DNA from: Psammoneis japonica
Lineage: Eukaryota
Direction of reading: 5' to 3'
Length of the DNA stretch: 64,000 bases
Assembly: GCA_008632985.1 (NCBI GenBank)
Contig: QPGO01000123.1
Location: forward strand, 62,001-126,000
Of this stretch, positions 8,480 through 62,440 are shown piece after piece. Position numbers and translations under genes: made by a program. Numbering within the stretch: position 1 is the first letter of the stretch; each line of letters starts with the position of its first letter. Below the pieces are notes generated by a model, which worked only from the letters and a program-made list of their open reading frames with translations, was not told the DNA's origin and made no database searches.

Positions 8480-11400
8480 TTGACATGACACTGCCACTTC
8501 CAATGACCAAGTGAGAGAAATCCATTTATCTAAGCGACTGTGCAAGCAATGTGATGTCATTCTCTCTTTGATGGACCCAGCAACGAGTGCCCATTTCTCA
8601 AAAAACGAGGGCGGCTCAGTTGTCAGTGGCCGGGCGGCTGCAAGAATTCTTTGTTGTGAGTCACCATCAATTCAAGCATGACCCACATGGGAGTGACCAT
8701 CACCAAATGGCAATGATTGTCACTGCCTGGGGATGCTCTGCCTGCAGCAATTGAAGACCTTCCTCGGAACAAGCAAAGGTTCGGGGAGCCTTTCTCAAAT
8801 GATTTTTGAGCTGGCGACTCGAAACATGTCATCTCTCCATGATGTCAGCTAATCACTGAAACTGTCAAAACAAATTTTCTGCAACACCAATGACCAAAAC
8901 TCCAGCTGAGTGCATGAGGAAATGGGGGCCTCCAAAGTGAGAGGATGAGGCTGGAAGAGTGCAAAAGAAAGGTCGTCAGCTTGAAGGCCATGCATCAAGA
9001 GAGGAAGAAGCAAAAGGGATCTCACATGCCTTGGCCATGCTCAAGGTGCTTGTGGAGACCAAAAGGATGAGCACAAAGACAGTTTGAGCCAAGGGAACAA
9101 AAGGCGAGAGCTTTGAAGTGCTGTTGAAAAGTTCTCTTCCAGATTCACCGTCAGCAACATCATGCTTCTAATGGGCTGCTGCCTTCATTGTGGTCAACTT
9201 CTTTGATCAACACATCTGGAATCAGTTTCATTTTGCATGCACCACACACAGCAAGCATTGCATGAGTGAGTGGGGCTTTCACCACTCATCTGCTCTTTTG
9301 GGGCATCCAGCTGGACACCAGGATGAGATGATTCTTGAAACCACTCATGGTCACAACAAAGTCTGTTGATCCATGTCAACACAGGGTGCATGTTGTCAAT
9401 GTTGGCCTCAAACCAATGAGCACTGTGCAGTTGAGGTGATGTGCAAATTTGCACGTGGCACCTTTTAAAAAATCAGTGCTTAAAAAGAAAATCAACACTC
9501 CCTTCTTGAAAACTTTCTGCACTCTGACAAATTTGGAGGCACTGCTTGTGCTCAGGAGAACACAGCAGAACAACAACACAACCATGGCACAAATGCCATT
9601 TGTTGAGCACAATGGAGGTGGTCCATTGTCAAAGTCACTTTGCAAGATTGTCTCAACTGTCATGTTCAACAAACTTGCAAAAAAGAGACTTGGACACCTT
9701 TTGGCCTGCATTGCATTCAACAAATGGCACTTGTGTGCCAGCGCGGGAGGAGCAAACGTTTTCCAAGACAATGTGGCCTTTTTTGTTCTGTGGCTGCCAT
9801 TGAATCACAATCTTTTCCAACAAGGCAAGGCCCACCTCATTTGCAATTCTGGCCTGGTTGGTTGCCTGGACTTTGCCTTCTGAAGATTCTTTGTGCTTGC
9901 AGAGAGGTGCACGACATTTTGAAGTGGCTGCAACCAGCGCTGACATTTCCACCATTTCTCAAGCCTTGCTTCATCTGCTGGGTCAGTGGGAAGGAGAGAC
10001 TTGTGCTGAGGCAAGGCCTCCTTGAGAAATTCAATCATTGCAAGTGACTGACACAACTGAGTGATGCTGCCAGAAATGTGGTCTTTGTTGCACTCCAGGG
10101 GCTGGCACTTGCTTTTGTTTTTGCCTTTGGCAAGGACAATGTGGATTGTTTTACATGGAACAGACTTCGTGGCAAGTGCCACATGGATTGGCCATGTGCA
10201 TGATGACCTCCAGCAACCACAAAGCTCAAAATTGATGCATCAGTCTTCTTGCTGCACCAAAGAGGAATCATCAGGAGTGCTCTCAGTCCTGGCTGGCAAA
10301 ATGGCGCGCTTTCACATTTGCCAAAGCTCACGCAATTTCCATCTTAACTGGCACAGTGTCCCCTCATGATTGCAGAATCACCATCTTTGGGAAATTTGCT
10401 CGCACTGTGTCACCCACTGGAATCTCCTTGGTGCCTTGCTTCCAACTCAGATCAAGCACACTGCCATGGGACCCTGACTCCATTCCAGAGATTGCTCCAC
10501 TCCCCAACAAGTTGCCTGCTTGCATCGTGCAACCTGTTGCAGAATGATGCACAAGTTGTCAAGCCACATTCCAACACATGTGCTTCAAGTTGGATCAAGC
10601 AATCATGGCAGGCTCTGCTGACAGTCGGAAGCCTTGGCTCCAATGAATGGCTTGACATCAGCCAAATGCCAAATGCACAAACAGCAGGTCAAAAAACTGA
10701 CAAAAATGAAGAAGTCAATGGCAACAGGTGGCATTTTCAGTTTGCACCAAGCAATGGGTCCAAGAGTCTAATGTGGTTCACTGGTTCACTGCGGGAGTTG
10801 CAGGCAGAAATGAGCAATGACTCTTTTGTGCATCCAAAAACATGTGGAAAGACACCACACCTTTGGTTTGCAGCCAGACAGTCACCCGCACAGCCACAAC
10901 AGCAAGGGGAGGGCAGGTGTCTCAGTCAGAAGATTCAAGCCTTTTTGAGATTTCCAACAGCTCTGCATCTCTTGGCACACAGGGCTCATTCAAACTAAGA
11001 GTGGTGCAGAGTTCTGCCACATTTTCTAGTTTGCTTCATCAGCTGTGAAAATCAATCATTGTCTTCTTCTCTCAACTCTTGGATTCTTTTGAAAGCAAAT
11101 TCAGTGCAACAAGTTCAACTTTTGGACTGCTGCCAATGTGATTTTTATTCATCAGACCTGGAAAGAGGTGCATCGCCCAATCTGAAGTCTTGTCTTGCTT
11201 GCTCAGGAAATGCTGCCTCCCACTGGAGGCAGCGATGGCAGCTTCAACTTGATCAGCATCAAAATTCTCATCTGATTTTGTGGATGCTGCATTGGTGCCT
11301 TGCTCCTCATTGTTCAGGCTTTGCATCTCAGAAAGTTTTGTTGGCAGTCTCTCGTGTGCACTTTGATGCCGGCTGAAACACCAACACAATGCCAGCAACA

Positions 11401-13450
11401 AAAGTGCACCTGCAAGTGCAATTCCAGCTGCAACACCCACAGTGTTTGAAGGGTGGTTGCTCTCTGTCATGGAAAAAGTGTCTCAGTGTTCATTTGATGT
11501 TGTCCAAGAAATGCAATTCTGCAACATGGCATTGCCAGCAGCAGCAGCAGTTTCAAGTTGCCCATCATGGCCCATGACCCAATGGCTGCAGCACTCACAT
11601 CATGATGATGTGATTGCTGTGCCAGCTTGGCAATTTGATTGCAATTGCATGGCGAGATTGGTGTTTGGCATTTCCTCTTTTTTCAGTCCTGCACTTTTGG
11701 GTGTTGCTGCCATTTTGATTGCAAGCAAGGAGAATCACAGTGGTGGTCATGCACATTTTGCACTTTCATCTGTCCCTTCTGCACTCGACACCCAGTTCAG
11801 AAGGTTGTGGGGCCTCCCCAGTCTGTTTTTTGTTTCAAGATGTGGGCCATGAACCATCATCAGTGCACAGCAGAAGCAGCAATGTTGCACCAGCACCATG
11901 GGCCCAAGGCTCCATTTTGTGGACAAATGGGGGACTCCCCTTTTTGTTGGAAACTTTCCGGCCTGCCCCCCAAGCCTGCGCATGGCCAGCGCAGATCCAC
12001 AGTGTTCCATGACCCACTGGCACAGTGTGCCCACTGTCCATGCCAGCAGCAGCATCCCCTGTTTCTCCTTTTCTGGAGGCCAAACAGTCCAGTGGGAGCC
12101 TGGATGAATCAACAGCTTCAGGTGGCATTTGAGCAGCTGGGGGGATTTGATTGTCCAAGAACCCCCAGAGCAGTCTGCTGCCGACCAGAAATGGGTGGCA
12201 GCTCTTTTGTGCACATGTCCAAAACAGCACACAGAAAGATGCCACACCTTTGGTTTGCAGCTGTGTGCTGTTTTGAAAAGTGAGACAGCCCAGTTGCCCA
12301 TGCAGTCAAGAGAACATCTTTCCGCCAAACAACCCTCTGCACCAAAACTGCTGCTTTGCACCATGCACCATGCTCCAGCTCTGGACAGAAATCTCTGTGA
12401 CATCCACCAAAGATTCCTGTAATTTTCTTCTGTGCACATGGGCAAATGATGCACATTGCAAGCACATCAAAAATGCAAGATGTGTTGGCGCATTGTGCAA
12501 GACTTGCTGCAAGCACAGCAGCCACCACATTGCATGAGCGTCGGTGCTGCGGCACTGTTCAAGGCACTCTCTCAGCTGTGATTTCAAGTGTTGGTGCCCA
12601 AAAACACATCTGCTCCCTGCTTTCCTCCCACACCTGTCCTGATGACCAACAGCTCTTGCAAGAAAGCCAAGCATGAAGAGCCAAGCAGGACAAATCTTTT
12701 GGATCAAGCCCAGCCCAAGTTGGAGACCAGCCATTTGACAAAATCTTCCCGTCAGCTGCTTGCCTCTGAGGCCACCTTTCATTGTGCTTTGTCACCTCTT
12801 TGGAAGCATTGATTCTTGCCCAGTGCCAGTGAAGACAAATTGTTTGTTTCAAGCGGCTGCATTTCCCGCCTTTGATGTCTCCTTTGGGAGTGTGGAGATG
12901 CTTGTTGAGCTCAGCACAAGATTGTCCCTGCCTTTGCACTGCTGGGAAAGACAGCCAGAGCTCAGCTAAGATCATGCATGCCAAGCTGAGAGGTGTGGTC
13001 ATTGCACTTTGATGGCAACGAACGCAACATTTCTGACTTTGTGGGTTGGCAGCCCACACGTTGCAGCACACCAAGGCCAAGATGTGTCTGCTGGATTGTC
13101 CCCTTTTCAATGGGCAAGAAGGTTGGCCCTCTGAGGTGATGAGAGAAATGAAAGCAACTTCCAAGCCCTTTTTAACTGTGGAAATCTTCTTTCTTTTGTC
13201 ATGGAAGCATCCCTCAATTTGCCCGCAACGCACGCTCACATTTTTCTTTCGGGGATGTGTTTGCTGGTGCTCTCCACACACTTGCCCCAAACTCACCATC
13301 ACATGAGGAGCACCCTCCAGTGTTGGGCCAAACTCAGGGCTGCTGCTTTCACTGTTGGGACTTTCAGGAACACTGAAACGATTCTTGTCGCACCCATCAT
13401 TGCCAACGAGTTCTTGCAGCAGTGGGCAGCAAATGGCGCGCGGATTGATT
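8480..13450. other. CpG/TpA-depleted hypermutated block 1, containing decayed gene fragments
   Basis: CG and TA are very rare and TG/CA abundant; six-frame ORFs are nearly Tyr-free and Cys/His-rich. Borders approximate. Confidence 0.85.
9290..10560 (-). pseudogene. Decayed fumarylacetoacetase C-terminus followed by maleylacetoacetate isomerase (GST-zeta); FAH-MAAI fusion relic
   Basis: HHSATGCTMQAGNLLGSGAISG...GSVLDLSWKQGTK resembles the FAH C-terminus. QSLAMIEFLKEALPQHKSLLPTDP, LQPLQN and PQLHSAHWF...HPVL..INRLC....FQESSHPGVQLDAP resemble GST-zeta. Same strand and collinear, many frameshifts. Confidence 0.75.
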
Positions 13451-13815
13451 GATGATTCGGACAAATCTTACCGTACGAAAGTCAGAATCATCGGCATGCC
13501 GGATTTTTTGGAATGTTTGATTTTGGCTGGCGCGATATCAACGGAAACTTTTTAGTATGACATTTTAGTTAATTCTACATACACACATTCTTACATGGAG
13601 ACGACTACGGATCGGCTTTGTCGACGTCATTTTCCCGCCATCAAGCGAGACCAAATCCGATGCTCATCTTGCCACATCCTTTTCCCGTGAGCTTCTTGCA
13701 TCTCATTGGTTCAAGACTTCGCTTTGGTGAAGTTTCTCACCTGGAACTATTTTTGAACAGGACGTCTTATTCAAGTTCTCGGAGCGGTCTTTTTTCTTTC
13801 ATAAAACAATTCATC

Positions 13816-20884: not shown

Positions 20885-21199
20885 ATGGCACTGTGGCTGC
20901 ATCAGACCAAGTCCCTAGTCCGGTCAATGGAGAAGAGGTTGACGTCCATTCCCAAGACAGTCCTCAGAACTAGTCAGTTGAAAGGGGGCAAAGCGTTGGT
21001 TTCAGTTCAATTTTTCGTCTGTTCTCCGTCTCGAATAAACTCAAAACGATACGATTGCTTTGTTCGGTGCCGGCATGAAAACGACCATTGAATTAGTAAA
21101 ATCACAAATGATGCAGCAGCACGCTGTAAAGAAACAACAAGAAGCTTTCTTTTGAGAATGTCTCTAGCCATGTTATGAAGTCGATCAAGTTGCCATGCT

Positions 21200-23200
21200 G
21201 TGGATTAGGATTTTGATTCTTTCGACAGGTTTGCAATCGACCTGTTGCAGTGCAGTCCCCAGTTCACAGGAAAGCATGAGCTGCATGGTGTGATCAAATG
21301 CCATTTAGCTACATTGTGTTGGGGCAGTCCTACATCGAGAATGGGAAGATTCATTCGCAAGGTCTCAAAGCGCCCATTTGACATCAGGCTGAAGAGCAAT
21401 CCAGTTTGGTCCAAAACAAGGGCAGCATTGCTTCCCATTAAAGACAGTCTTGCTGGACATGAAGCAGAGCTGAAAATGGGAATGCCAGCAAGAAAAAGGA
21501 GCACACATTTCATTCAATCTTGTTGTGAGTGCTTTGGTGGCTCCCTGACTCTTTGCTGCATTTTTCTTCCATTTCATCAAGCACAGCTTTGCATTGTCAA
21601 TGAAAGACAGCAGTTGTTTTTTGCTCAATTCATCAAGCAGCTCATCATCATTCAAGAATTGATTTCCTTTGCCAGTTTGAAAATGATGCTTCAACAAGAA
21701 TCACTGTGCAAGTGCCAGCCTCCAGACCATGCCATTTGCAAGTTCAGGAGCCACCATCATTCTGAGTTTGTTCTAAACAACCCACTTCATTCTGCCTTGG
21801 TCCACTTGAGCAATGCAATCACCTTTTCACTGTTTTCAACCAGTGTTTTAGAGCAGTTTACCTTGCTTTTTTGCATGCAAGTTTTGCATCACCAAAGTCT
21901 GCACTTGTTTTGCACCTTTGAAGCACCTTGGAAATGCACCACATGATGAGTGGGGGTGCCAGCGATTCTCAGTCAACATTGTCTGGAAGAAACATGCTGC
22001 CCCGTTGCTTTTCTTTAACTCACACACTCAAATGCCTCCACTGAAAAAGTCTTGAGGATGGCTGTAAACCAGATGCAGCCATTCAACAGTGCTTTTTCAG
22101 TGGCAGAAATGAAGAACAAATGGTTGCCGTTCCCAGAAATGGTTGGTGTGTCTGTGTGGTGAGCAAGCAGAGGTTGTTGGGATGAGCTTGTTCCACATCT
22201 TTTGCAGCCCCTTCCATGGCACAACCTGGTTGTGGCTCCAAGAGGACAGTTTCCATGCACAGATGCAAGAGCTGCTGAAGTGCCCTGAACTTTTGTGAAC
22301 ACACAGCATCTCTCATTGGGGCATCAACAAGCTGGCCAACCATGGGCAAATGTTGGCACTGGTGGTTGCACAATGCAGTTCAAACAAGCCATGCATTGCT
22401 GCTGCATTGCAGCTGCAACTTGAGGCAACTGCTGTGCCACACTTCTCCTTCACTCTTCTCCTCTCTGTCCTTCTTGGGCAAACACAGTGGCAGCATGGCA
22501 AAATCCTGCATGCTCGGGAGGAGGATGGCTTGTGGAAGCATGGCATGCTCTTTGTTCTAGAGACTTGGCACACTCAAGGAGCTTGACAAGGCTCTCATTC
22601 TTGCCAAGGAGACCAGGGAGAGTTCTTGCAGTGCTCTGATGCAAAGAGAGAAATGGGCCTCTTTTTTGTGCTGCAAAAGTCTTCTCCCCCCGCATTGTGC
22701 AAAGTGTGTTTGAGATCATCACAGACCCACACCAACAACGCAGTGAGTCACATTTTCTAATGGCTGGAGCAGTGCAAACTGCCAGCTGGATGGTGCCACA
22801 CTGTTTGCTTGGTGACAAGTGCAATGCTGCTGGTGATGTGTGCACTCTTCATGCACTCATCATGGAGAAACGCTGCAGTCCGAGCAGCGCACTCTTCAAC
22901 CCCCCTGTGTGTCTTGTTGGCACTTCTTGTTGACAGAAAGCACCACATCATCACAATCATTGTGGCAGAAACAAGCACTGGACATTGCATCAGAAGATTG
23001 AGACACATGAGATTTTTTCTTTCTGTGCTCCTTCGTCCACCGGAGTGAAAAAACAAGAAGCTCTTTTGTGCACAGAGCGATCACAAACATCCTCGATGAA
23101 CAGCAGGAGTGTGGTGAGAGCCAGGAGTCACCAGCAGGACAGAACAGTCATTTTTTGATGCCATTTTGAATGAACTGCATCCAAGAGCTTGTTTCTAAGA
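21200..23200. other. CpG/TpA-depleted hypermutated block 2 (unidentified decayed coding or TE sequence)
   Basis: Same dinucleotide signature and Tyr-poor, Cys/His-rich ORFs as block 1. Confidence 0.8.
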
Positions 23201-23552
23201 TGCTCACAGAAACGTCAAAAAGAGGGTGCAGAGTCGAATCGTCGAGTGCTCTGTCTGGGATGGAAGTGGGTCACGGCACTCGCGATGTAAAACGCCGTTA
23301 TCTGAACGGATAAAATTATTCGTATTCGAGGATAATTTATTTCGCGCCGGGCCCTTGTTCAGTTACTCGTCACAACATACAGTATAGTAACACACGCAAC
23401 AAAAAACAAACGAACAACGTGATGTGGAAGGGCAAGTGGCAAGTGGCAAGCTGGGCAAACTCATTATTTGCAATCATTGCTCTTCTCTCAGTGTGAAGGA
23501 GTTTGCTTTCTTTTTGCGCACGTAAATCGAAAAATATCCTCATTTAGTCGTG

Positions 23553-40452: not shown

Positions 40453-40533
40453 TGTCCTATGTGTGACAGGCCACCTAACTGTGCTTCAACTAATTTTTGG
40501 TCGAGTCAGGTGTCAAATGACCGGCTCTGTTAA

Positions 40534-40783: not shown

Positions 40784-40789
40784 TTAATT

Positions 40790-45050: not shown

Positions 45051-47070
45051 TGTGCCTGGTCTGCTGATCATTGATGCTTGTCATCTGTGATGCACTCTGG
45101 CAGAGCAAGCCATGATTAGAGCTCTGCTTGACACCTGGTCTGTGGCAGCAAGAGTCAAAGACAGAGCAGTTGTTTGCTTGACAGGGCATCTCCAGTGGGC
45201 CAGAATGGTCCGCTGCTCAACAACATGACTGTCTCTCATCTGCTCCAGCAGCAATTGGTGCATGGAGACTCCCCTCCACCGGCACGTGGTTTTCAATTTC
45301 TTTGCACCACTTTTCATTGAGACGCAAATTTTGCAAGTCGCAAATTGATTTACAAAGACAAACAGCTCACATTTTTTCACAATGAAAGCACGTGCGAGGT
45401 CTCAGAGCACTTCATTTTTGGCTTCAAATGAGCAAATGCTGCTGTTTCAACAACCGCAGGTCTGCAAGTGACATGAAACAACACACCAATTGAATTGTCA
45501 TCATTGCAAAGAGCCATTTGATGTTTTGTTTGTGAGGAAAGGTGGTGCAATTGTCAAAAAAGGTCATTTTTGTTCAAATTTTGCGATGCGCTGGCATGAG
45601 TTGCAGTCATGAGAAGGCAGTTTCCTTTGAAAATGATGATTTCTTGTCCTTTCTCGTGCATCACATCTTTTCTCAATTGAAGCAAAAAGAACACCTGCAC
45701 CTTGAATGGCACCAGAGGATATTGCCTGTGTTGCAAAGATGATCTTTGAGGGTGACAAGGGTCATTTCTTGACTCGCCACATGGCGATTGTGCGGGGATT
45801 CAGAATTTGTCACAAATTCAGCAATGTTGCAAATTTTTCAATTCAGTGGCTCTCCTTTCTTGGCAAAGATTTGCCAGCACATGCCCTTTCCTTGGTGGCA
45901 CAGCGGCTCTTGGCAGCCAGTTTGCAGCTCCCTGCTTGCCTCTTTTTCACCATTGCCATCTGTCACTTCTGCCCGGCTCCCTTTCTCTCTTGTTGTGTGG
46001 CCTCTTTTGGTGCACCCCTCCAAGGTGGTGTGGCAGCTCTCTGGCTGGTGCTCCAACTCCAGGTTCTCCTGGATTTGGCATCACTGGCTCAAGGTCTGCT
46101 GGTGCTTTTGCCTTGCACTGCAACCAACCAGACAGCTTGTCCAAGAGTGCATCAGACACAGGAGGACAGCAGAGTTGAGAGCGACAGACTGCAGTCAACC
46201 TGTCTCGAATGTTTGGCGCAAATCAGAGCCAATGAGAGACAGTGTGGTCTCTGTGCCTCTCCCTGTGCAAATTGGGGGTTGACTGGCAGGATCTGCTTTT
46301 GCGTCACTCACTCAATGCAGAAGCAGTGCACTGGCCTGTGAGCACCACACAAGTCACAGCAGCAAGCTTGCCCCCATTTCTTGCCAAGTCTCGCTGTGTG
46401 ACTTTGTTGAGTTTAGAGAGAAAGAGAGAGAGAGAGAGAAAGAGAGAGAAGCCTCACTTGCAGCCAACACCACCACCCCTTTTGTGGCTCTCCAATTGGA
46501 GCTCCAATTCTGGGTTCCCTCAGATTTGGTGTCTCCAGCTCAAGGTTTGGTGCTCATGGCTTGTGCCACAACCAAGAGCTTGTCCAACAAGAGGCACATC
46601 ATCAGACACCAGAGAGGACAGCAGGGTTGAGAGCACCAGAGAGGGCAATTGACCCATTGATTGACAAGAGCAGCAGATGGCATTGACAACCATGACAGAG
46701 ACAGCAAGTGAAATTGCCCTGTTAATTGAAATTGAACACAAAGCGTGTGGTGAACCATGGGAAGATCAGACGAAGTGGAATTGCCTTCAGGCATTTGTCC
46801 AAAGATTGGAAAGTGTGAATTCCTTCAGTGACTGATGGACCTGTGACAATGGAGCAGCTGACGGACCCCCACAACCCACAATGCAACACAATGTCAACGC
46901 AACCGCAACAGTGCATGCAGTGAACATCGGATGTTGAAGCCAAGGTGCAGTCTTGCATGTTCCTCTTTTACTTGAACAAGACTGTTCTGCAGTGCCACAG
47001 CATTCTAGACATGCCTCTTTGGATTGAGCTCACGAGGCAAGAGGAAACAAACTGAAAAATTGAGCAAAGC

Positions 47071-47923
47071 ATGACAAACAATGACATGAGAGTCGACACG
47101 GAAGATGGCACAAAGAATGGTGCGCCTCCCCATTGGGAGGACAAGGAGCTTTGTCTTGATCAAGCCCCTGAATTGCCTTGACCACCGAAGCGATTCTTTG
47201 TGCCATCGTGGATGGCTGGACACTGCAAGATGTTCAATTTATTCAAATGATTCCTGGAGGTAACTTGCCCCACTTGCAAGAAAACCTTGATCGGTTCCGA
47301 ACGTCTTCCTTTTTCAGTTTCACAAAGAGCGCCTTTCACAAAACAGAGGAGCGAGAAGCCCTTGCTGACTGCACGCCAATGTCCATGTCGGCCGTGCCTC
47401 GATTGCTTCAAGAAGGAAAGCTCTCTGTTGATGTTGCCATCATCAAGGTGACTAAACTGCACAAGGGATTCTGCAGTTTGGGATTTGGAGTTGAGTGCAC
47501 ACATGATTTTATCAAATGCGCCAAAATTGCCGTGGCAGAAGTGACGACTCACATGCCATGGACCGAGGCGCATTCCAAGATCCATGTCAGCGAAATTGAT
47601 TGGTGGGTCATGGAGGACTCGCCTCTGAAAACTGTGCAAGAGCTCTGGCCAGACTGCATGCAGTCTGTTCCTTGTTCACAGGAGGTGCTGGCTGGCATTG
47701 GAAAGAACCTTGTGAAAGAGATTTCCAACGGCACCACACTCAAATTTGGTTTAGGACCAGTTCCACTTTCTGTGACCCGTTTCTTGCATCAGCGAAAGAA
47801 CATTGGCCTTCACACGGATGTGCTGGTGGAGGAACTCTTTCGCTTGCAGCTTGATGGTGTCATTGCCAACACAGCAAAGGCAGTTGATGCTGGCAGAACT
47901 GTCGTGGCACAAGCTTGCGGGAG
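47071..47923 (+). pseudogene. Truncated, hypermutated duplicate of the acetyl-CoA hydrolase/transferase gene
   Basis: Aligns to 53739-54631 with a ~37-nt deletion; every aligned Tyr codon has become Cys or His; truncated where DIRS copy B begins. Confidence 0.95.
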
Positions 47924-47949
47924 AGTCAAGAGTTGTGTGCATTTTTTTT

Positions 47950-50900
47950 TCAACAATCATTGGGTCGAGTCAGGTGCCAAATGACTGTCTCGCCATCTGT
48001 CAATTGTCAGGCATGGTGCTCTTCGCACCGCAACCAAGCAATGTCACAGCAATCAGAGCAGGCAGATGGAGACGACACTCCAAGGGCACACTCACCTGAT
48101 CTTTGGAAGCAAATCCTCTGGCTGGTCCTCGGATTTGCGGCAAACCAAACCTTTTTTGTGTCCCATGAATGCAAGGGTCACCCCCCCAAGCACTTGTGAC
48201 CAGACTTGGGGTTGATCCCAGACAACAACCAACATGACTGAGGGAGCAAGCACTTGAGCCAATTGGGCCAAAGTGCAGCTGAGAGTTTCACAGCTCGCCA
48301 CATTTGGCAGATGCACACAAGTCACAGCACTGGGGGTGGGCGGGCAAAAATTCAACCCCGCCCTCTGCAGGGTCTCGCCAGTGCTGCAAACAGCAGATCG
48401 GCGGGACTCAAAGAAGAAACCCTGGATCTGCCCTGCCAGGGGGGTGTTCCGAGCATGGGTTGCTTGGCAACAAAGCAATGCCATGATGTTGCGTGTGGTG
48501 GAAACTCATTGTCAAAAACAGAACACCATGTTGAGATGACAGGACAGCTGGTCCCCTCAATCCCTGGGCCCCAAAATCCAGTGGGAGCCACCCCAGTCCT
48601 TGATCCAAGAAGACAGCAACCCAGGAGACCTCTCAAAGGTTTCTAACAAGTGAAAATCAACAAATGGCATTGCACACTTCCCCTCTGTGACTCCTTTGGC
48701 AAGTGCCTCCTGCAAGATGCCATTGGTGCCTTGAGCCAGGAGCGTGCAAGTGCCCACACCAAGGACCAAGCTGAGTCTGAAGCCACCCGTGGATCAAGCG
48801 GAGTGGACACGGGTGACCTGCTCCAACAGCTCAGGGCTCACAAAGGTCTGTTTGTAAAAAGCTGTTTCCAACACCAAGTTGTCAGTGACAAAGAAGAGCT
48901 CTGCTCCTGTGAGATCTCCAGCTCCTCACTGTGCTCTTCTGGCATGCTTCCACTGTGTTGGTGATGCCCCCCCCAGCTGGGAAGAACTCTGACTCATCAT
49001 CCTTCACCTTCACCCAGATCCCAACTCAGTGCAACACCAAGCCATCAGGTTTCTGAACCAAGGATCCAAGTCCTTTCCCAGTGCATCACCAAATCTGGGC
49101 AGAACAACACAATTTTGTGCTCACACACTGTTGCGCATGCTGGTGTGTGGGGGGCAAACATCCAGTCCATGGCCTGCAGATCTCCCAGGAACTGGAGAAC
49201 TGCTTGGACCAAGGAGGGAGCTTGAAGGTCCCTTGAGATCACTCTGCAAGTCCTCTTGTCTGTCTCATGCCTGAGCCAACAACCAAATTCCTTGCCTGAA
49301 ATTGCCCATCCATCTGTCCAGCAATTTAGGTGCCATGAGTCCAAGGCAAGGTGCTGTCCCTTGTGGAAGGGATTTAGAAAGTTGCAGGTCATTGCCATCT
49401 GCCCCTCTTCCTCTCCAAGTCCTCTCACAATCAAAGGTTTGCAACTCCATTCCTTGCTCGTGTGCTTCCTTGCACACCAACAGTGGCAGACTCCTGACAA
49501 TCAACTTTTGGCCTTGTCCCACTTTGCAGCAGTCACAGTGACTGTCAAGTCCATGCCATTCAGCACCCCAAAGATGACCCAAGCCCAAGCACCAACTTGA
49601 TCCCCAGATGTTGGCATGAACTTGCACAAAGCATTTGGAATGCCCAAGCACTGAAGGTGCAAAGCCATTTGCCATTTGCCTTGTGACCCACCAAGCATTT
49701 TCTTTGCTGAATCCTGTGCCCTTTGAGTCATTCACAAATGTCCCAAGGTCTCCCGCAACAGCCTGGCTGACAGTGCTCACTCCCCTTCATTGCCCTGGGG
49801 AGCCATGGTTTGCAGGCAGGGTCTCGCAGCAAATTGAAGATCATCAAGATGAAACCCGTTGGATTGTCTGGGAGCACAGGATTTCCTCTGCAAATCTCCT
49901 TGGTCCAACAAAGCATCCTTGCAGCATCACATGGGCTTGGTTTCATGTGCCCATGAACAGGCAAACCCATCATTTGCAGCAGACTGCAGACCATGCATGC
50001 TTCTTGGACTCCCAGGAGGTGCTTGAGAACAGGCAACAAGTCAATGCCTGTGTGTGGTCCAATCTTCAGGAGTGGTCATGCACCACAGGACTGACTTTGG
50101 AGTTGGGAGAAAGAAGCCTGGGGCCCACAAGGCACAATTGAACCCCCCCCCCCAAGGATGCACTGTTGCAGACCATCCCAACAATGGCATGATCCAAATG
50201 GACAGCAGGAGAAACCACATTGAACCCAATGACAAACAAGATTGGCTGCATTGATGTGGTGCCACCAACCCAAGTGTGTGACAAGGACACTGTGTCAGCA
50301 CACCAACCAATCCCTGCCACCAACTTCTGGGCCCAAATCTCATGGCTGCCATGGGACGAGTTGCACATTCTGCCCAGCGGGCCAATTGCAGGAACCCCTC
50401 ATTGACGCACAGAGGTGCTGCATGTCAACATGCTGGAGTTTGCAGCCATTGTCATCAACACCCATGTGGCCCTCATTTTCCACCAGTGGCATGGCTGGAC
50501 AACACCAGCACCATCTCTTGGCTGCAACACATGAGCTGCCATTTGCATTGTCCTGTTTTGCATGTCTGGCTTGCTTCCTTCTCTTTGCTGCTGAATGTTC
50601 AACCTGGGCCTCTGCCATTGATCAATGCTCCCAACTTGCAACAGTGCAAGTGCACCAAGTCCCACTTCCAAGCTTGAATTGATGACTTCATTGCTCACTG
50701 GACAGGGTGTGACCATGGGTGTGTGAGGTGTGCAAATGACTCATCTTTGGAATCTTGTGCCTTGCACTTTGCTCATGGTGCTGGCTTGAGCAGCATGGCT
50801 TCAACAACATCAGCCTTGCAAAGCCAACTTTGGCACAGACTTTTCTTCCCATGCTGGGCTGCCACATGTTGGGCCTGGCAGAAGGTGACTCTCTGTGCAG

Positions 50901-52300
50901 TGTCAACATCATTTCAGAAGACCTTCTGATTGGCCATCTGAATGCTGCCATTGAATGTTGATGCTCCCATGCATCAGCAAAAATGAGGCAAGATTCAATT
51001 GTTCCCATTCTGCAAAGAAAAACCACTTGTCAGCATGGCACCTGGTGCAAGAAATGCAACAAGAGGCAGCTGATTTCTGGCCTGATGATGTGTTTGCACA
51101 TGGAGCTTCAGTGTGCCAAGCATCTGGGAGGTGTGCAAAGCTTGTGTCCTTGCTCCAGCCTTCACAAACTGGGACCACTTTTCCTTGTGTTCACCAGGTC
51201 TTGTCTTGCCAAATGTGCTCAGAGCAAAGTGCCCAAGAGGCAACATTTTGCTGCCATCCTGCACAATGCCAAAGCAGGTGAGTGGGATGGCATGCCCCTT
51301 GTGTTTGTTGTCACACAAGACTTTGTGTTTTGTGCATCCTCTGCCTGATCACCACAAACTTTTGCATGAAGCAGCAGATCTGCATGTTCTCTTCAGATGC
51401 AACAAGAGCAAAATGAATTTTGCCATTTTGCATCTCTGTCACAGTTGCCAGCAGGCAATTTTCTTGTGCCCTGTGCAAGCCACTCAAGCCACCATTCACT
51501 GTTCTTGGCACCAAGCTGCCCAAGAGTGCATTGCACCTTCTCTCCTTTGGGCTCATTTGCCTGTTGTGTTGTTGAGGGCAAGCACATCATCATCAAGTTT
51601 CTTTGTGACACCTGCCAAGCTGCACACTCTGACCTGGCCATCACCTGTGGCAGCATGTCAAGTGTTCAATGATGTCACACTCCAACAGATTGACAGTGGC
51701 AGTTGCACTTCTTAACACAGGCATTCCCATCAAGGACATGGCCTGCCATGGCACTAAAGCAGTCTCAGGCAGGTCTCACTGACAGGATGAAGAGTGATCA
51801 AGTCTTGAGCCAGAGAGCAAAGTCAGCTTGAACGAGCTAAAAGAAGTCAATGCTGTGCAAAAAAGCATGCTCTAGATGTTTTGAGAGATTCAGAGCTGGT
51901 GTCTTAACCAAGCAGTGAACAAAATCTGTCGAGGAGGAGAGCAAGGAGCAGCTTTCACAAAAATCATTCCTGAGTGAGAGACAGTTCAGTCACTGTCAGC
52001 TGATTTGTTGCAACATGAGGTTCTCATGGCAACCATGCTGTGACACAGTTGATTCCCATCACCCTCTTTTAAGTTGAATGGGTGAACATGAGGTGAAATC
52101 AAGAAGTTGTGCAAGAAAGGAGAAGCCAAAGGGTGCAATTGACCATGACCCAAATCTTCTCAGCAACTTGAGTTTTTTGCAAGGACATCTGTGAGTTGAT
52201 GCCAGGATAAAACCAAGGACATGATGACCACACAAGTTGCCTTGTCAGACACATCAAAAAACATTGCACAATGTGCCATGTGCAGCTGGTGTGCTGATTG
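47950..52300 (+). mobile_element. Decayed DIRS-like retrotransposon, copy B, with tyrosine-recombinase remnant
   Basis: RNase H-like segment 50400-50550 matches copy A. LHVLFRCNKSKMNFAILH...LCPVQA at ~51380-51490 resembles a DIRS recombinase. The 5' sequence ggtcgagtcaggtgYcaaatgac also occurs at ~40499. Confidence 0.6.
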
Positions 52301-53738
52301 TTGATGCTCATCTGTGATGCACTCTAACAGAGCAAGCCTTGATCAGAGCTCTGCTCAACACCTGGTCTGTGGCAGCAAGAGTTGAAGACAGGACATTTGT
52401 TTGCTTGACAGGGCATCTCCAGTGTGCCAGAATGGTCCATTGCTTGACAACATGACTGTCTCTCATCTGTTCCAACCAGTGCCTGGAGAGGCCCCTCTGC
52501 TGGCACATGTGAGGTGGTGGTCTTCAACTTTGCACCACTCTCCTTTCTTGGCCCAGATCTGCCAGCAAACATGCCCTTTGCTTGGTGACACAGTGGCTCT
52601 TTGCAGCCACTTTGCAGCTTCCCACTGGCCTCTTCTTTCACTGTTGCCATTTGTCACTTCATCCTTGCCCCCTTTCTCTCTTGTTGTGGGGCATCTTGCA
52701 ACCCTCTCCAAGGTGACAACTCTCTCTGCCTGGTGCTCCAATTCTGGGTTCTCCTGGACTTGACATCTCTGGCTCAAGGTCTGTCATTGCTTCTGCCTTG
52801 TGCTGCAACCAACCAGATGGCTTGTCCAAGAGTGCATCAGACACAGGAGGATGGCAGAGTTGAGAGCGACAGATGGCAACCGACCTGTTGAATGTTCGGC
52901 ACAAATCGGGTGCCAATGAGAGACAGTGGTCTCTGTGCCTCTCCCCATGCAAATTGGGGGTTGACTTTCAGGATCTGCTTTTACATCACTCACTCAATGC
53001 AGAAGCAGTGCACAGGCCTGTGAGCACCACACAAGTCACAGCAGCAAGCTCGCCCCCATTTCTTGCCAAGTCTGGCGCTGTGTGTTTTTGTTGAGTTTCA
53101 AGAGAGAGAGCCTCACTTGCAGCCAACGCCACCCCCATTTTGTGGCTCTCCAATCAGAGCTCCAATTCTGGGTTCCCTCAAATTTGGTGTCTCTGGCTCA
53201 AGGTTTGGTGCCCATGGCTTGCGCCACAATCAAAGAGCTTGTCCAACAAGAGGCACATCATCAGACACCAGAGGACAGCAGGGTCAAGAGCACCAGAGAG
53301 GGCAATCGACCCATTGATTGATGAGAGCAGCAGATGGCATTGACAACCATGACAGAGACAACAAGTGAAATTGCCATGTCAATTGAAATTGAACACAAAG
53401 CGTGTGGTGAACCATGGGAAGATACCGGCAGGACGAAGCACAATTGCAATTGCCTTCAGGCATTTGTCCAAAGGTCGGAAAGTGTGAATCCCTTCAGTGA
53501 CACTGACGGACCTGTGACAATGGAGCGGCTGACGGACCCCCACAACGTAAAACATATATAATGTCAATACGCAACCGCAACAGTGCAGTGAGCATCGGAT
53601 GTTGAAGCCGAAATGCAGTCTCGTATGTTCCTCTTTTACTTGCACAAGACTATTCTGCGGTGCCACAGCATTCTAGACATGCCTCTTTGGATTGAGCTCA
53701 CGAGGCAAGACGAAACGAACTGAAAAATTGAGTAAAGC

Positions 53739-55692
53739 ATGACAAATAATAACATGAGAGTCGACACGGAAGATGGCATGAAGGATGGTGCGCCTGCTCC
53801 CAGTTGGGAGGACAAGGAGCTTCGTCTCGATCAAGCCCCTGAATTGATAAAGAATGGTAATCACATCTACATTGGCAGCACCGCCTCGACCGCCGAAGCG
53901 ATTCTTCGAGCCATCGTGGATAGCTGGACGCTGCAAGATATTCAAATTATTCAAATGATTCCTGGAGGTAACTTGCCCCACTTGCAAGAAAACCTTGATC
54001 GGTTCCGAACGTCTTCCTTTTTCAGTTTCACAAAGAGCGCCTTTTATAAAACAGAGGAGCGGGAAGCACTCGCTGACTACACGCCAATTTCAATATCGGC
54101 CGTGCCTCGATTGCTTCAAGAAGGAAAGCTCTCTGTCGATGTTGCCATCATCAAGGTGACTAAACCGCACAAGGGATTTTGCAGTTTGGGATTTGGAGTT
54201 GAGTGCACACGCGATTTTATCAAATACGCCAAAATTGTCGTGGCAGAAGTGACGACTCACATGCCATGGACCGAGGGGCATTCCAAGATCCATGTTAGCG
54301 AAATTGATTGGTGGGTCATGGAGGACTCGCCTCTGAAAACTGCGCAAGAGCTCTGGCCAGACTATATACAGTCTGTGCCTTATTCACAGGAGGTGCTGGA
54401 TGGCATCGGAAAGAACCTTGTGAAAGAGATTTCCGACGGCGCCACACTCAAATTTGGTTTAGGACCAGTTCCACTTTCTGTGACCCGTTTCTTGCATCAG
54501 CGAAAGAACATTGGCCTTCATACGGATGTGCTGGTAGAGGAACTCTTTCGCTTGCAGCTTGATGGCGTCATAACTAACACAGCAAAGGCAGTTGATACTG
54601 GTAGAACTGTCGTGGCACAAGCTTACGGGAGTCGCGAGTTATATGAATTTCTCGACCGCAATCCAGCTATTGAGTTCCAGCCGAGCAGCTACGTGAATGA
54701 CTACCGAATCATGGGACAAATCGAAAATCTTGTCGCGATTGTGGACGCTCTTAAAGTTGACTTGACAGGTCAGGTGGCTACAGACTCGATTGCGCACAAC
54801 TTTTACGGCAGTGTTTGGAGTGTCGATGACTCCATTCGTGGTGCTCGATTCTCACGTGGCGGGAAGCCGATTGTTGCGTTGCCCTCTAAGAGTTTACGTG
54901 GGCGCTCCAACATTGTGCTTGCATTGCCACCAGGTACAGGAGTCTCCATTACTCGATCAGATGTGGAGTACGTTGTGACTGAGTACGGAACTGCTTATCT
55001 TTATGGTAAACCGATTCGAGAGCGCTGCTTGGCACTGATCGACATTGCTCATCCGGACTTTCGAGATGAACTTCTTATGGAAGCCAAGCGCCGCCACTTT
55101 GTTTCAGAGTCCCAACCCGGGTATTCCTTTAGTAGTACGTATCCAAAAGAGATCGAGTGTACACACACAACTCGGAATTTCAAGACTGTCTTTGTGCGAC
55201 CAATCAAGGCGGTTGATGAGGACATGCTTCGAAGCTTCTTTCACAAGTTGTCTGATCATTCTGTCTATCTGCGTTACTTTCGCAAAATGCCTTCCTTGCC
55301 CCAACGGATTCTACAAAAGTTTGCCGATGTTGACTATTCAAGCGACATGGCTTTAATTGCACTTCACCCCCACGATTCACCAACCCCGATCTCGTTGGAA
55401 TCGCTCAGTGGATTTCCGATCCGCACGACGGAATTCCAGAAGTTGCGTTTCAGGTGCGAGACGATTGGCAAGGACAAGGATTGGGCTTGTTTCTTTTCTC
55501 TATTTGGTAGAAGTATCCAAATTCTTCGGTGGTGTCACTCATTTCAAAGCTGATGTGCTAGTTGACAACAAAGCCATGCGAAGTGTGTTTGAGAAGTCTG
55601 GCATTGAATACACTAGCCGTACCGAGTTTGGTGTATGTATCTATGTGTTCACCATCCCCAAGCGAAAAACGGATCTTCTTGCTATAAAGTAG
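53739..55692 (+). CDS. Acetyl-CoA hydrolase/CoA-transferase fused to a C-terminal GNAT acetyltransferase
   Basis: IYIGSTAS, DVAIIKVTKP..GFCSLG, DGATLKFGLG, IGLHTD, VDLTGQV, SRGGKPIVALPS, VVTEYG, IAHPDFRDEL, then RPIK..DE..L..FF..LS..SVYLRYF and EVAFQVRDDWQGQG. One apparent indel near 55390. Confidence 0.9.
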
Positions 55693-58173: not shown

Positions 58174-58249
58174 CCTTACAGTGTTGATCTTCGCTTCAGC
58201 GGCCCTCTTTACTTTATTACAGTAACTATGGAAGCTTGTGTGTACAGTA

Positions 58250-60780
58250 GGCCCTAGACATGAAAGCGTTGAAATGCAATGAGCAACAGGCAACAGGCGT
58301 AGGCAACCTCTTCCGTACCACTTACAGACCTCCCAGTTGGGAGTGGCAGCAGCAGGCATGCAACAGGAGTTGGCACGGAAGGCGCTGCATGCTGTACTTA
58401 CCGGTACACTGCAGGCGGGGCAGGACGAGGGAAAGAAGGGGCGCGCAAGACAGCGCGTAGGGCTGGAGCCAGCAGGGGAGGGGAGAGTGTGGGCGGCGGA
58501 ATGATGAACAATGTTGCATCCAAGAGTCTGCACTGGTGCAGCCCACTGAGAAGGAGAGGCAGAGCGGTGGGAACTGCCAAAGCGATCAGCAGCAATTTGT
58601 TGCCAGGTGAAATCAGCGGCAGGGGTGGGAGAGGGAGAGAGCGCAGGAGGCAGGAGGCATCGAAGGACGCAGTTGAGTGCTGCTGTGGGGAGGAGGAATC
58701 GGGCCAGGGAGGCTTGGGCTGAGAGGAGAAGGAGGGCAAAGAAGAGACAAAGAGAAATCAATGAAAGAAGTGACCAAGAACACCAAGACAATCAACAGCA
58801 AATGGAAGAAGAAAGATCCCAGCGGTGTTGAGGGGGGTTGAACAGCAAGAGAGACATCAGAGGAGAGGAGGCAGAAGGACCCAAAAACTTTGATCTCGCG
58901 CTTGTGTGGTGCACCTCAGCAAAAATGGGAGAAGAAGGGGCAGGCAGACCAGGAGGAGCTTTGCAGAGATGGAGGCAGGAGGGTGGAAATGCCAACATTG
59001 GCTGGGCAAAGGAGAGGCCGGTGTGGAAGGAGATTTGCGGGTTCAAGGTGAACATCACTGGGGGAGTGACAGAGCTTGGAGAGAGGACCAAGGGTGTGTG
59101 CAAGGACAAAGACAGCACCTCAAATGCCATTGGAGAGCTTGGACTTGTGACTGTGATTGCGTGCAAAAACATGATCGCCAAAAGCATCTGGTGGGGTGGC
59201 ATGACTGCAAGGACAAGGAGAGTTGACAAGGGAGGAAGCACCAGAAGATGAAGCTTGTGTTGGTGGACAGCCACAGTGCACTCATTGGAGGCAAGGTGGG
59301 AGACAGCAAAGCATTGGCAGAGGGGGCAAAGCGGGAGACTGGTGAGAGGGGACAGAAGAGAAGGAAGAGCAGTGTGAATGTCAGAGGGGGCACTGGCGCA
59401 AGAGCAGCAGCAGAAATTGTGCACTGTTGATGGGCATGGTGGAGCCATCAAGCCAGGCCAGGGAGTGTTGCCATCTTGACCAAGGCAGAGAGAGTTGGAG
59501 CAGCCAAAGATGAATCAGAAGAAAGGGCAGAAGTGAAATGGTGAAAAAGAGTGCAGAGACAGAGGTGGGAGCATGGATTGTTGTTCCAAGAGGAGAGGGA
59601 CAATTGAAAGCATCAAGGGAGCTCAAGGGTGTCACCAGAAGGAAGTTGAATCCTGTGGGTGGTGAAGCAGAGGGAGCAAAGAAGGGAGATGAGGAATGAT
59701 GGGATGGCAGCAGCAGCAGGATCCCAAAGGCCGAAGCCACCAAGAGCAGTGGGCAAAAAGGCATTGGCAAGAGAGAAGGAAGGAAGGGGATCCAGATGAG
59801 CAGAGGCATGACAGAGGAAGCAGTGGATGGCAGCAAGGAAAAAGTCTTGAAACAGAGAAGTCTAGAGGAAGGGATCAGGCAGGTCATCAGGGTCAAAGTT
59901 GCAGCAGAAATTGGCACCAAGAAGGCAAGCGGAGGAGGGAACAAAACAATGCCTAAAAAGCTGAGCCTGTGTTTGCTTGTCATGAAGGTGAGACAAAAGT
60001 TTGTCAACTTTGGAAGAGAGGGAGGAGGAAGCATTCAAAAGGAAGGAGTTGGTGAAGGTCTGGGAACCAAGGGGGGCAGCCTTGAGTGAAGCCTTCACAT
60101 TGGGTGAAAGAGCTCCAGATGGAATTGGGATGGCAATGCCAGCACTCATTAGAGTTCTGATGCGCAATGTCAAAAAGAAAGGGAGCAAAGGATGAAAGGA
60201 CTCTTGAGATGCCAGGATGTCATGGCAAGCATGATGAGAGACTTCATCAATCATGTTGAAAAGGTCAAGGAGAAGCAGGACTTTGGGGGGAGAAGCCAAA
60301 GAGAGACAATGCTGAGTGTTGGTGTGAGCAGAATGAACAAGGTGGTCAAGGCTGCCCTCGACACCAACTCCAAATTGACCATCAGGAAGGAGGAATTTGG
60401 CAAACTCAGAGAGACACCAGAGAGCTGCGCCAACACCAATCGGATGGAGCTCATCAAGATCAGCAGGATCTCTGTGAAGTGCTGCAACATGGTTGAAGAG
60501 AGGAAGGGATGAATGGAAGGTGGCACTGATCCATCAAGGACAGAAAGAAGGAGGGCTTGAAGGGAGGAGAAGCAAGGGCATTGAGAAGAGCAAGAGGGTG
60601 ACTTGGCAGAACACAAAGCACAAGCTTTGAGAAGATCAGCAGAGCCAGCAAAGACCCCAGCAGCAGCAGCTGGTTTGCATCCACTGAGAGCCAACAGAAG
60701 AGATTTGGGAGAAAGAGTGACACAGGGTCATTGTTGGGGGCAGAGGAGGAGCAAGGGGAAGGAGCTGAAGTGAGGTTGGG
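58250..60780 (-). mobile_element. Decayed non-LTR retrotransposon (RT, CRE-like)
   Basis: LHPIGVGAALW (RPIGVG-like), LLLLDLFNMIDEVS, QCEGFTQGCPL on the minus strand; strong purine skew; hypermutated. Confidence 0.65.
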
Positions 60781-62440
60781 TGGGTGGAGGCAGGGAGGAT
60801 AAAGTTCGAGCATTGAAGGGAGACTCTCCAGAGTGTCCAGAATGATCTTCCTCAGGACACCATCAAGACTTGGCACACTCCTTTCCATTTCAAAGCTGAC
60901 CATGGCACCACCTTTGAAGCCTCCCAAACCACAAAAAGATGCAGAGAAGGCAAAGCTCTTTTTCACAACCAACTTCTTCTTGAAAAAGAACATTGCATGC
61001 TGCTGCCAACCCAGAAACTGCAGCAGCACACAAGGTGGTGCAAACCAGCCATGGCCTCTCAGAGTGGCTCCAGCTTGTTGTTCTCCTGACAAATTGAGAG
61101 GCAAAGGTAAAGATTTCAATGTGCAGCAGCTGTGCATCTTGTGAGCCTTCTGTGCATCTTGGCACAGACTTGGGTGACACTCAAAAGAAAAGATTCTGGT
61201 GGTGGCCCTGTGAATGCTGATGATGTGATGTTGAGAGAGGTGAGAAAAAGATGCCGGAGCAGCATGGGGCCAAGCGCCAAATTGGCAGCACATCATCTCA
61301 ACACAGTTGGAATGAGAGGGTTCAGCATTCTGGAATTGTGAGTGTGCCACATGAACAGACCAAACTTAAGAACTGGCTGAAACTGCTTGCATGCTCTCCA
61401 TGCGGCAAGGCTGAGAGAGCTGTTTGAATGCTTGGAAGACACAAACAACAAGAAGGAAGAAATGAGAGCCACCCAGCTGCAAGAGCTGCTTCCAGCCACA
61501 AAGGCAGAGCTGCAAGAGAAGAATGGCAACATCAGGAAACTGCACACAAGAAGGGCTTGTGTGCCATGTTGTTTTTGTTGTGACTGTGCAAGTGGAGGCC
61601 AGCTCCCCTGCCTCAGCTTCAAAGTTTAAAGCAACGATCCAGTCTTTGGAATCAGGTGACACTGCAACTGAAGAAGTGGTCCAAGAGGTGTCAAAGTGGC
61701 ACACTCTGCCTGGTGCAGGAGGTGCAGCAGATGGTGGTGGGGAGGACAAGGGCAGTGGCCAGGGGAGTTGTGTGAATGGCAAAGTTGGGGGTGCCGCCGT
61801 TCCATCATCTTCTTGTTGTGATGAGTGGTCCAGACTGGTTTAGCCACAAGAAGTGTTTTTTAAAAGTGTTTGGTGTTGTCAAACAAAATGTTTTTATCTT
61901 TCATTCTGTTGTCCATGCGACTGTCTCCCACGGGCTCAGTGCCATGTTCATGGTGCACAATGTGACCCAAGCTCATCAAAATTCAGTGGAGCTTGTGGCT
62001 TGTCAAAATCTCCATGTCAAGCAGCAAGTGCTGGCCAGCTCCATGCACAGCCACCACCAGTGTCACCTGGGCTCGTGCTGTGCAGCCCAGTGCCACGAGA
62101 GCACCCCGCACTGCCATCGCGCCACGGTCGTGTGACACGTGCCTGCCACTGCGGTGCACCATGACGTGTGCCGCAGCCAATTCAACTCCCCATGCCCAAC
62201 TCCCCACTGCAGCAACCAGGAGGGTGCTGCGGTGCTGTGCATGGGGGTTGCACCCACAGATCCACTAACTTGGACACACAGCAGAGTGGATCATCATCTG
62301 GGTTCTCCACCAGCAGATTGCACGTTGCCGCGCACCACGTGGTGAAGACCTCCCCACAGGCTGTGGGGAGAACCCAGGCAGTGATTGCCACTGTCTGGAA
62401 CAAGTTGAACAAGTTAGAAAAGACGGCGTTGGCATGATGA
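58500..62440. other. CpG/TpA-depleted hypermutated block 5
   Basis: TA almost absent; CG reappears first at both edges. Confidence 0.85.

Follow-up and report, generated by a model that had tools for sequence, protein, structure and literature searches.

The question of what decides whether a piece of DNA is rewritten by mutation or left intact is raised by a stretch of 64,000 nucleotides from Psammoneis japonica (contig QPGO01000123.1, positions 62,001 to 126,000; hereafter the window), in which five bounded domains have lost nearly all of their TpA (TA) and most of their CpG (CG) dinucleotides. The largest domain contains a dead, truncated copy of an acetyl-CoA hydrolase-family gene and ends shortly upstream of the live gene. 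Of the shared sequence, 1.1 kb has been mutated in the first unit of the duplication and is clean in the second. This provides a rare internal control, in which one sequence lies both inside and outside a domain, and it bears on whether mutation is aimed by position or by homology. We consider it probable, although well short of certain, that a position-bound mutator has changed TpA to TpG or CpA across bounded gene-free domains, irrespective of the presence of a homologous partner.

Five domains depleted in TA and CG

The first-pass annotation of the window had described five blocks that lack TA and CG. In 1-kb windows, five stretches show observed/expected ratios (o/e) of 0–0.3 for CpG, 0–0.1 for TpA and 1.6–2.0 for TpG/CpA, and G+C stays at ~0.5 along the whole window, including the depleted stretches. 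The domains were delimited by two-state hidden Markov models (HMMs) on pyrimidine–purine steps, which place them within ~100 bp of the blocks described earlier, and the expected counts given for each block (Table 1) were computed from base composition. The five bounded domains are confirmed as real, and each descriptive claim made of them has held up. Pooled over 25,714 bp, the blocks contain 74 TA (o/e 0.05) and 332 CG (o/e 0.21), with TG at 1.73 and CA at 1.79, and the fraction TA/(TA+TG+CA) is 0.011–0.021 inside the blocks, compared to 0.16–0.26 outside. Only two dinucleotides fall from outside to inside, TA to 0.08-fold and CG to 0.22-fold, and only TG/CA rises (1.52-fold); the other 12 stay within 0.87- to 1.16-fold, including AA (1.04), AG (1.14) and TC/GA (0.88). 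The many spurious tyrosine-free open reading frames (ORFs) that had been attributed to this loss were also found: the ORFs of 100 aa or longer inside the blocks encode 5 Tyr among 13,594 aa, and the corresponding figure outside is 393 among 17,356 aa. Long Tyr-free false ORFs from such domains can mislead gene prediction.

The boundaries are sharp for TA and more gradual for CG. Summed over all 10 edges, the innermost 300 bp contain 7 TA and 86 CG, compared to 131 TA and 170 CG in the outer 300 bp, which means that the inner margins retain 5% of TA and 51% of CG. By HMM, TA depletion extends beyond CG depletion at 8 of the 10 edges, by 52–708 bp, the exceptions being the left edges of blocks 2 and 4, and the CG-depleted segments are mostly nested within the TA-depleted domains; the earlier impression that CG returns before TA at block edges is thereby supported. 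In block 3, CG depletion is limited to 30714–32100, and the right third is TA-free yet retains CG. Neither tRNA genes nor tandem arrays were found at the block edges, and no terminal repeats were found at the block ends, where transition-tolerant alignment gave z < 2 in ten comparisons.

It could be argued that nothing is targeted, that TA and CG are unstable throughout the genome and maintained by selection alone, and that the blocks are simply unconstrained DNA. TA is indeed under expectation outside the blocks as well (o/e 0.50 in long ORFs, where CG is 0.96, and 0.68 in intergenic DNA). However, the 14,235 bp of intergenic DNA outside the blocks keep CG at 0.98 along with this TA, one non-block spacer of 1.6 kb has TA at 0.85 and CG at 0.99, the edges are as sharp as described above, and the synonymous TA sites of the live gene, considered below, are intact. 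A lack of any targeting is therefore very improbable.

Table 1. Positions (window coordinates) and properties of the domains, their margins, the duplicated units and associated features; decimal values for TA, CG and TG/CA are o/e.
Feature	Position	Strand	Properties and basis
Block 1	8539..13462		TA 13 observed vs 326 expected; CG 59 vs 290; HMM and counts
Fumarylacetoacetate-hydrolase-family relic, borderline	10372..10612	-	In block 1; PF01557, E = 4e-5, 23.8 bits vs cut-off 23.9
Margin with partial loss of TA and CG	20885..21332		TA 0.38, CG 0.66
Block 2	21333..23286		TA 9 observed vs 135 expected; CG 23 vs 109; HMM and counts
Block 3	30662..32808		TA 8 observed vs 145 expected; CG 53 vs 123; HMM and counts
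Margin with partial loss of TA only	32809..34276		TA 0.42, CG 0.98, TG/CA 1.3
MITE-like inverted-repeat element	40040..40800		761 bp; adjoins left edge of block 4; TA 49 (0.90), CG 41 (1.0)
Block 4 (largest)	40802..53543		TA 33 observed vs 793 expected; CG 148 vs 799; HMM and counts
TA-free, CG-keeping island in block 4	41060..41357		0 TA; 19 CG (0.76)
Duplicate unit 1	43776..47944	+	Wholly in block 4; 77-87% identity to 50379-54650 (self-BLAST)
Dead truncated acetyl-CoA hydrolase/GNAT-family gene copy	46880..47944	+	PF02550, E = 8e-10
Duplicate unit 2	50379..54650	+	Mutated upstream half, unmutated 5′ flank and first 910 bp of live gene
Unmutated 5′ flank of live gene, block edge to ATG	53544..53738	+	HMM, alignment
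Live acetyl-CoA hydrolase-family gene	53739..55553	+	PF13336, PF02550; TA and CG normal
Block 5	58464..62410		TA 11 observed vs 211 expected; CG 49 vs 253; HMM and counts

A duplication across a domain edge

The duplication is 4.2 kb long, and its last 1.1 kb corresponds to the 5′ flank and beginning of the live gene, whose best match has 81% identity and whose named relatives, at 62–63%, belong to the pennate diatoms Nitzschia, Cylindrotheca and Seminavis. Block 4 takes in the whole of unit 1, the upstream half of unit 2 and a spacer, and its TA depletion stops at 53543/53548 by HMM, 191–196 bp upstream of the live ATG at 53739, in agreement with the earlier description of a signature that fades shortly before this codon. 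The dead copy is partly mutated (TA o/e 0.10, CG 0.53). In the site comparison with the live gene, which spans live positions 53560–54640, it shows TG or CA at 23 of 31 live TA sites (13 TG and 10 CA) and at 21 of 55 live CG sites; these changes make up 44 of the 68 dead-versus-live substitutions, and reverse changes number 0. Since the duplication, the dead copy has thus lost 74% of TA, compared to 2.3% for other substitutions. The metagenomic contig L001, used as the outgroup with 74% protein identity over the alignment, matches the live copy at 20 target sites, the dead copy at 5 and neither at 10, and is unaligned at 9, whereas at non-target differences it is split 8 to 6. It follows from the lack of reverse changes, together with the siding of the outgroup with the live state, that the changes are mutations on the dead lineage, which occurred in DNA at this locus.

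This result bears on the idea that the composition was acquired beforehand, in foreign or retro-element DNA, through RNA editing or in a virus, or that it is a base-calling artefact of modified bases. A scarcity of CpG and UpA is common among RNA viruses and retro-elements, and the blocks are without recognisable homologs, which is in favour of such an origin. However, a host gene copy has gained the signature in place, as judged against both its live neighbour and the outgroup, and the duplicate halves have diverged by TG-versus-CA alternatives after the duplication. The run contigs also match the TA/CG-free sequence with 1–9 differences per 0.75–1.2 kb, although the run is maybe not independent of the assembly. 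Taken together, a pre-acquired composition or an artefact is hardly credible. The editing of retro-elements at the RNA stage by an ADAR-like enzyme was considered separately and rejected, because the changes arose after a DNA-level segmental duplication and independently in both copies.

The sparing of the live duplicate, as first proposed from inspection, is fully borne out by the counts. Where the dead copy keeps TA or CG (7 TA and 33 CG), the live copy has lost 0 of 40, compared to 44 of 86 in the dead copy (Fisher p = 6e-10). A change to TG/CA that is synonymous or falls in noncoding sequence would be open to 22 of the live TA sites; the live copy has kept every one of these, whereas the dead copy is mutated at 15. 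An equal loss of TA and CG in the live copy relative to an outgroup, which had been named as an observation that would speak against sparing, was not seen: the live gene has o/e values of 0.50 for TA and 1.00 for CG, compared to 0.41 and 0.85 in the metagenomic ortholog. The first-pass annotation had used the intact synonymous TA sites as an argument for protection; the sites are as intact as it stated, and the argument is valid only if mutations accumulate singly. One-at-a-time accumulation is suggested by partially mutated states, by the absence of strand runs and by the Bigelowiella data described below. No strand-coordinated runs were detected among the 44 events of the dead copy, which form 25 strand runs compared to 22.6 expected, and this random alternation of strands argues against processive, single-strand episodes.

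The upstream halves of the two units provide the counterpart to the spared gene. Differences in which one unit has TG and the other CA occur at 19 of 171, 19 of 134 and 13 of 183 aligned TG/CA steps of the upstream halves, compared to 1 of ~152 in the gene part (p = 1e-5), and in 45850–46880 and its partner 52538–53550, 17 further sites have kept CG or TA in one unit only. Such TG-versus-CA alternatives result where one ancestral TA or CG is changed independently on different strands. Therefore, both upstream halves were mutated independently after the duplication; in unit 2, much of the mutation, which reaches up to 53543, is of this later date, yet the edge has stayed in place and the next 1.1 kb is clean. 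As a side observation, one X1 contig passes from 45030 to 52271, positions that correspond to each other roughly by homology between units 1 and 2, and has 9 other letters in place of the 7240 bases that it leaves out; it may derive from an unduplicated form or from a collapsed contig graph.

These findings should be weighed against repeat-induced point mutation (RIP). RIP, as it operates in Neurospora and other ascomycetes, changes CpA to TpA, thereby raising TA, and it needs a duplicated partner and strikes both copies; it depends on a RID-type methyltransferase and on a premeiotic stage. The domains resemble its products in that dense, directional transitions have killed gene copies and left dinucleotide-skewed, gene-free blocks next to normal genes. 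A RIP-like, homology-triggered mutator would strike all duplicates, and the live copy would be spared only through selection against mutated cells. Such a mutator is compatible with the mutation of both upstream halves after the duplication, the blocks may be ancient repeats, and the DNMT4 enzymes of diatoms are relatives of fungal RID, according to the part of the literature consulted (PMC9998398). However, the chemistry is opposite to that of RIP, with TA being destroyed instead of created and CA being enriched, and one duplicate is spared completely, including its silent-route TA sites and its 195-bp 5′ flank, whereas apparently unique sequence is fully affected. The process also looks gradual, as judged from the partial states and the lack of strand runs. 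Most of block 4 is at single-contig depth, its bins having mostly 50–76 summed contig depth, like the genes at 53.3–58 kb; this depth is not copy number and gives only a hint that there are no near-identical extra copies.

Two further features outside the blocks are relevant to this comparison. The element resembling a miniature inverted-repeat transposable element (MITE) that adjoins block 4 has 97-nt inverted arms (40308–40404 and 40587–40683) and three copies of a 31-nt palindrome; with a summed contig depth of 1651, compared to ~55 elsewhere (again not copy number), it is apparently high-copy, and it is nevertheless unmutated. The 273 bp just past it (40803–41075) have zero TA and inverted ends of their own. 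An inverted pair of paralogous ORFs (25695–26292 and 27137–27749), which share 76% identity over 620 bp and belong to no Pfam family, also has normal TA and CG. In addition, the hypermutated target in Bigelowiella natans is single-copy, as far as the main text of the preprint describes it (bioRxiv 10.64898/2026.01.13.699255). A homology-triggered mutator is, in our judgement, rather unlikely. The earlier proposal that targeting follows a chromatin domain and not pairwise homology is supported in part: position within a bounded domain, on the evidence of the sequence, decides the fate of a copy, whereas the chromatin nature of that domain is putative.

Context and speed of the two losses

The young dead copy has lost 38% of CG, about half the proportion seen for TA. 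Surviving CG is clustered (variance/mean 2.85 vs 1.12), whereas surviving TA is not (0.95 vs 0.97), and surviving CG is enriched in GCGC and CCGC contexts. Spontaneous CpG deamination is expected to spare CpG with GC-rich flanks. When the window was compared to run contigs over 40969–44711, 11 of the 23 listed differences were CG versus TG/CA, in both directions, and 3 were TG-versus-CA doubles, which indicates that CpG decay is still polymorphic. Of the mutated C residues, 11 of 21 have a 5′ T, compared to a background of 32% (p = 0.06). The losses of TA and CG are better read as two processes of different speed than as one. A weak spectral peak near 185 bp was also observed for surviving CpG, which 0–2 of 300 locally constrained shuffles matched; it is carried by blocks 1, 2 and 5 and absent in the largest block, and could be a nucleosome-scale footprint or noise.

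The loss of TA depends on the flanking bases. Surviving TA within the blocks lies in TAA/TTA contexts in 65 of 74 cases, compared to 565 of 1480 outside (p = 1e-17), the counts being 28 for CTAA, 18 for TTAA, 13 for GTAA and 6 for ATAA, and ATAC, ATAT, GTAC, ATAG and CTAC are almost extinct. The dead copy shows the same tendency: six of its seven surviving TA sites are of the TAA/TTA type and one is CTAG, and TA that has no T on its 5′ side and no A on its 3′ side is mutated in 14 of 14 cases, compared to 9 of 15 for the TAA type (p = 0.08). The contexts in which TA survives best are TTAA, CTAA and CTAG, and each of them has the form Y-T-A-R (Y, pyrimidine; R, purine). Such a pattern is compatible with a process that favours a pyrimidine on the 3′ side of the target A, a purine on the 5′ side of the T, or the two together. 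At asymmetric sites, 5 of 7 edits would be on the T-A-Y strand, which is not significant and depends on a reading of the alignment. An asymmetry of products by context was set aside as a criterion, because TA and CG share their products and the ancestral composition is not known.

The relation between the two losses also bears on a repair chain, in which the T:G mismatch left by a deaminated methyl-CpG would undergo error-prone patch repair that changes A to G at nearby TA. A precedent is the A:T phase of antibody hypermutation, where polymerase eta acts at the WA motif; this polymerase also targets AA. The sharing of the five domains by both losses, with edges only ~50–700 bp apart, and the equal effect on both strands would be explained by such a chain. 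However, AA is undepleted and AG is only slightly raised inside the blocks, although polymerase eta would also target AA. Moreover, TA loss is faster and wider than CG loss, and TA-free islands retain CG, so that the trigger would lag behind its consequence. In B. natans, TpA is mutated with almost no G:C-to-A:T change, according to the main text of the preprint (bioRxiv 10.64898/2026.01.13.699255). This combination of observations makes a repair chain improbable.

Contents of the domains, possible mechanism and likeness to known systems

Transposon or viral Pfam domains were found neither in the 150 in-block ORFs that were scanned, out of 170, nor in a six-frame scan of all five blocks, and reverse transcriptase, integrase and transposase were likewise absent from the Pfam scans of the five blocks. 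The only Pfam relics are the dead acetyl-CoA hydrolase fragment and the borderline fumarylacetoacetate-hydrolase piece, both of host type; the coordinates of the latter were derived from residues 951–1030 of its frame, and no live partner was found for it among 24 scanned long ORFs outside the blocks. Block 4 also contains an ORF of 408 aa (42957–44180, minus strand), for which a word-indexed search, phmmer on 1.84 billion representatives and the ESM Atlas gave no relatives. By a rough estimate, its length is unlikely to be due to chance even without TAA and TAG stops, so that an unknown gene may have left it as a relic. A short element at 45337–46003 in the same block has a summed contig depth of 1597, and most differences between its contigs and the window are transitions; the element probably belongs to a dispersed repeat family, the copies of which have been mutated to differing degrees.

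The genes of the window are long, intron-poor ORFs for eukaryotic proteins, namely Deltex, a receptor-PARP-WWE protein, a mitochondrial carrier, SNF2, GH3, the signal recognition particle (SRP) receptor and a bromodomain protein. On the minus strand, 96 bases (58046–58141) are skipped by one contig of run X2, and, shifted by one equivalent base, the skipped segment is bounded by GT..AG when read along the strand that carries the SRP-receptor gene. The segment resembles a spliced intron, which makes a cDNA origin probable for X2 (given as "DNA?"), and the first exon of the SRP-receptor gene would extend to at least 58238. Run X2 has no cover in the interior of block 4 and carries no evidence of silence there. 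In the neighbouring first half of block 5 (window 58000–60000), the plus strand is purine-rich, with a GC skew of 0.35 and an AT skew of 0.33, and TG and CA are balanced despite this skew (373 vs 405). Many contigs skip 65–281 bases in this region, which suggests degenerate internal repeats.

For the position-bound mutator that we favour, the following course could be envisaged. TpA would be rewritten in place to TpG or CpA by A:T-to-G:C transitions on either strand, and membership of a domain, rather than a homologous partner, would select the DNA to be targeted. CpG in the same domains would be lost to TpG/CpA by a slower and patchy process that fades over the last ~300 bp, a pattern that spontaneous deamination of methylated CpG would give. 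The domains could be silent, methylated chromatin, and the TpA step may consist in the deamination of DNA adenine by an enzyme that favours T-A-pyrimidine, by analogy with the proposal made for B. natans. The process may serve as a defence that disables foreign or useless DNA.

Several points weigh against a position-bound mutator. Linked bursts of mutation, if they occurred, would allow selection on the live gene to give the appearance of protection, also at synonymous sites. Contig depth is not copy number, and the blocks could be old repeats whose partners have since disappeared or become too different. The mutation may be older than the MITE-like element, which would account for the intact state of the latter. 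Transversion divergence is ~3–5% in the upstream halves, compared to ~1.3% in the gene part, a gap that may reflect gene conversion or a two-step duplication in the history of the locus. The sole DNA runs represent one sample, perhaps the source of the window's assembly, and the involvement of chromatin is something that we infer. Finally, the losses of TA and CG co-occur tightly, and one enzyme acting on both A and C is conceivable.

To our knowledge, hardly any natural enzymes that deaminate adenine in DNA have been described. The sole report so far of a targeted A:T-to-G:C mutator is a 2026 preprint that deals with an unrelated alga, and the recurrence of its signature in a diatom-like genome points to a system that is widespread in lineages of the stramenopile–alveolate–rhizarian (SAR) group. 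More speculatively, and with considerable doubt, it is possible that an old DNA-editing defence guided by chromatin is common to diatoms and chlorarachniophytes; in it, a T-A-pyrimidine deaminase would act at methylated silent domains with roughly nucleosome-accurate edges, and domain membership alone, rather than foreignness or repetition, would be decisive. Such a defence would progressively erase all TA, and with it Tyr codons and TAA/TAG stops, host gene copies included. Our favoured reading predicts that domain edges match chromatin marks within ~100 bp, that the TA and CG sites remaining in the dead copy are hot in mutation-accumulation lines, and that a candidate deaminase prefers T-A-Y and disfavours Y-T-A-R. 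Full-text literature searches found no description of an equivalent TpA process in diatoms and no paper that combines TpA, CpA, TpG and diatom.

Among known systems, the hypermutation of Pucciniomycotina is said to act on the motif TCG, giving TTG. It is CpG-directed and repeat-directed and affects transposons, as far as the consulted part of the source describes it (PMC3318451); the C-to-T change at CpG and the weak 5′ T lean of the dead copy are shared with it, whereas it has no reported TpA component and CpG loss is here slower and secondary. A second likeness is to the transposable elements of diatoms, in which methylated CpG decays. In Phaeodactylum tricornutum, transposable elements are methylated via DNMT5a, according to the part of the source seen (PMC9998398), and the five domains look like the methylated, silent, repeat-type compartment of diatoms. 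The signature of such decay is present, with CG at 0.22-fold, TC/GA at 0.88-fold, 21 changes from CG to TG/CA and 0 reverse ones, and CpG survivors favour GC-rich flanks, but it leaves the loss of TpA unexplained.

The closest likeness is to the chlorarachniophyte B. natans. In its mutation-accumulation lines, 230 of 231 hypermutations were A>G or T>C, all at TpA, and fell in two inserts, one of them integrated DNA of a nucleocytoplasmic large DNA virus, which measures 186 kb and is single-copy and transcriptionally silent, and the other from a virophage; the rate was ~6e-7 per site per generation, ~1000-fold over background, the mutations accumulated gradually (a few to 45 per line), the long-term footprint consists of window clusters low in TpA and high in CpA+TpG, and an ADAT2-like deaminase was proposed, all as given in the main text of the preprint (Mettrop et al., bioRxiv 10.64898/2026.01.13.699255, 2026). 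Both cases share the change of TpA to TpG/CpA on both strands, bounded regions within an otherwise normal genome and gradual accumulation, and in B. natans homology is evidently not needed. They differ in several respects, the host being a rhizarian in one case and a diatom-like stramenopile in the other. The viral inserts of B. natans retain 3.3% TpA and are recognisable as such, whereas the domains described here are nearly TA-empty and carry relics of host-type genes instead of viral or transposon domains. Change in B. natans is almost exclusively A:T to G:C, whereas CpG is co-lost here, maybe through a separate process; CpG, flanking context and diatoms are absent from the main text of the preprint, whereas a TAA/TTA-resistant context is seen here. 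TpA rates were measured in B. natans and are only deduced here. The window nevertheless presents the signature of a TpA mutator in another SAR lineage, near completion and coupled with CpG decay, together with direct evidence on how it is aimed.

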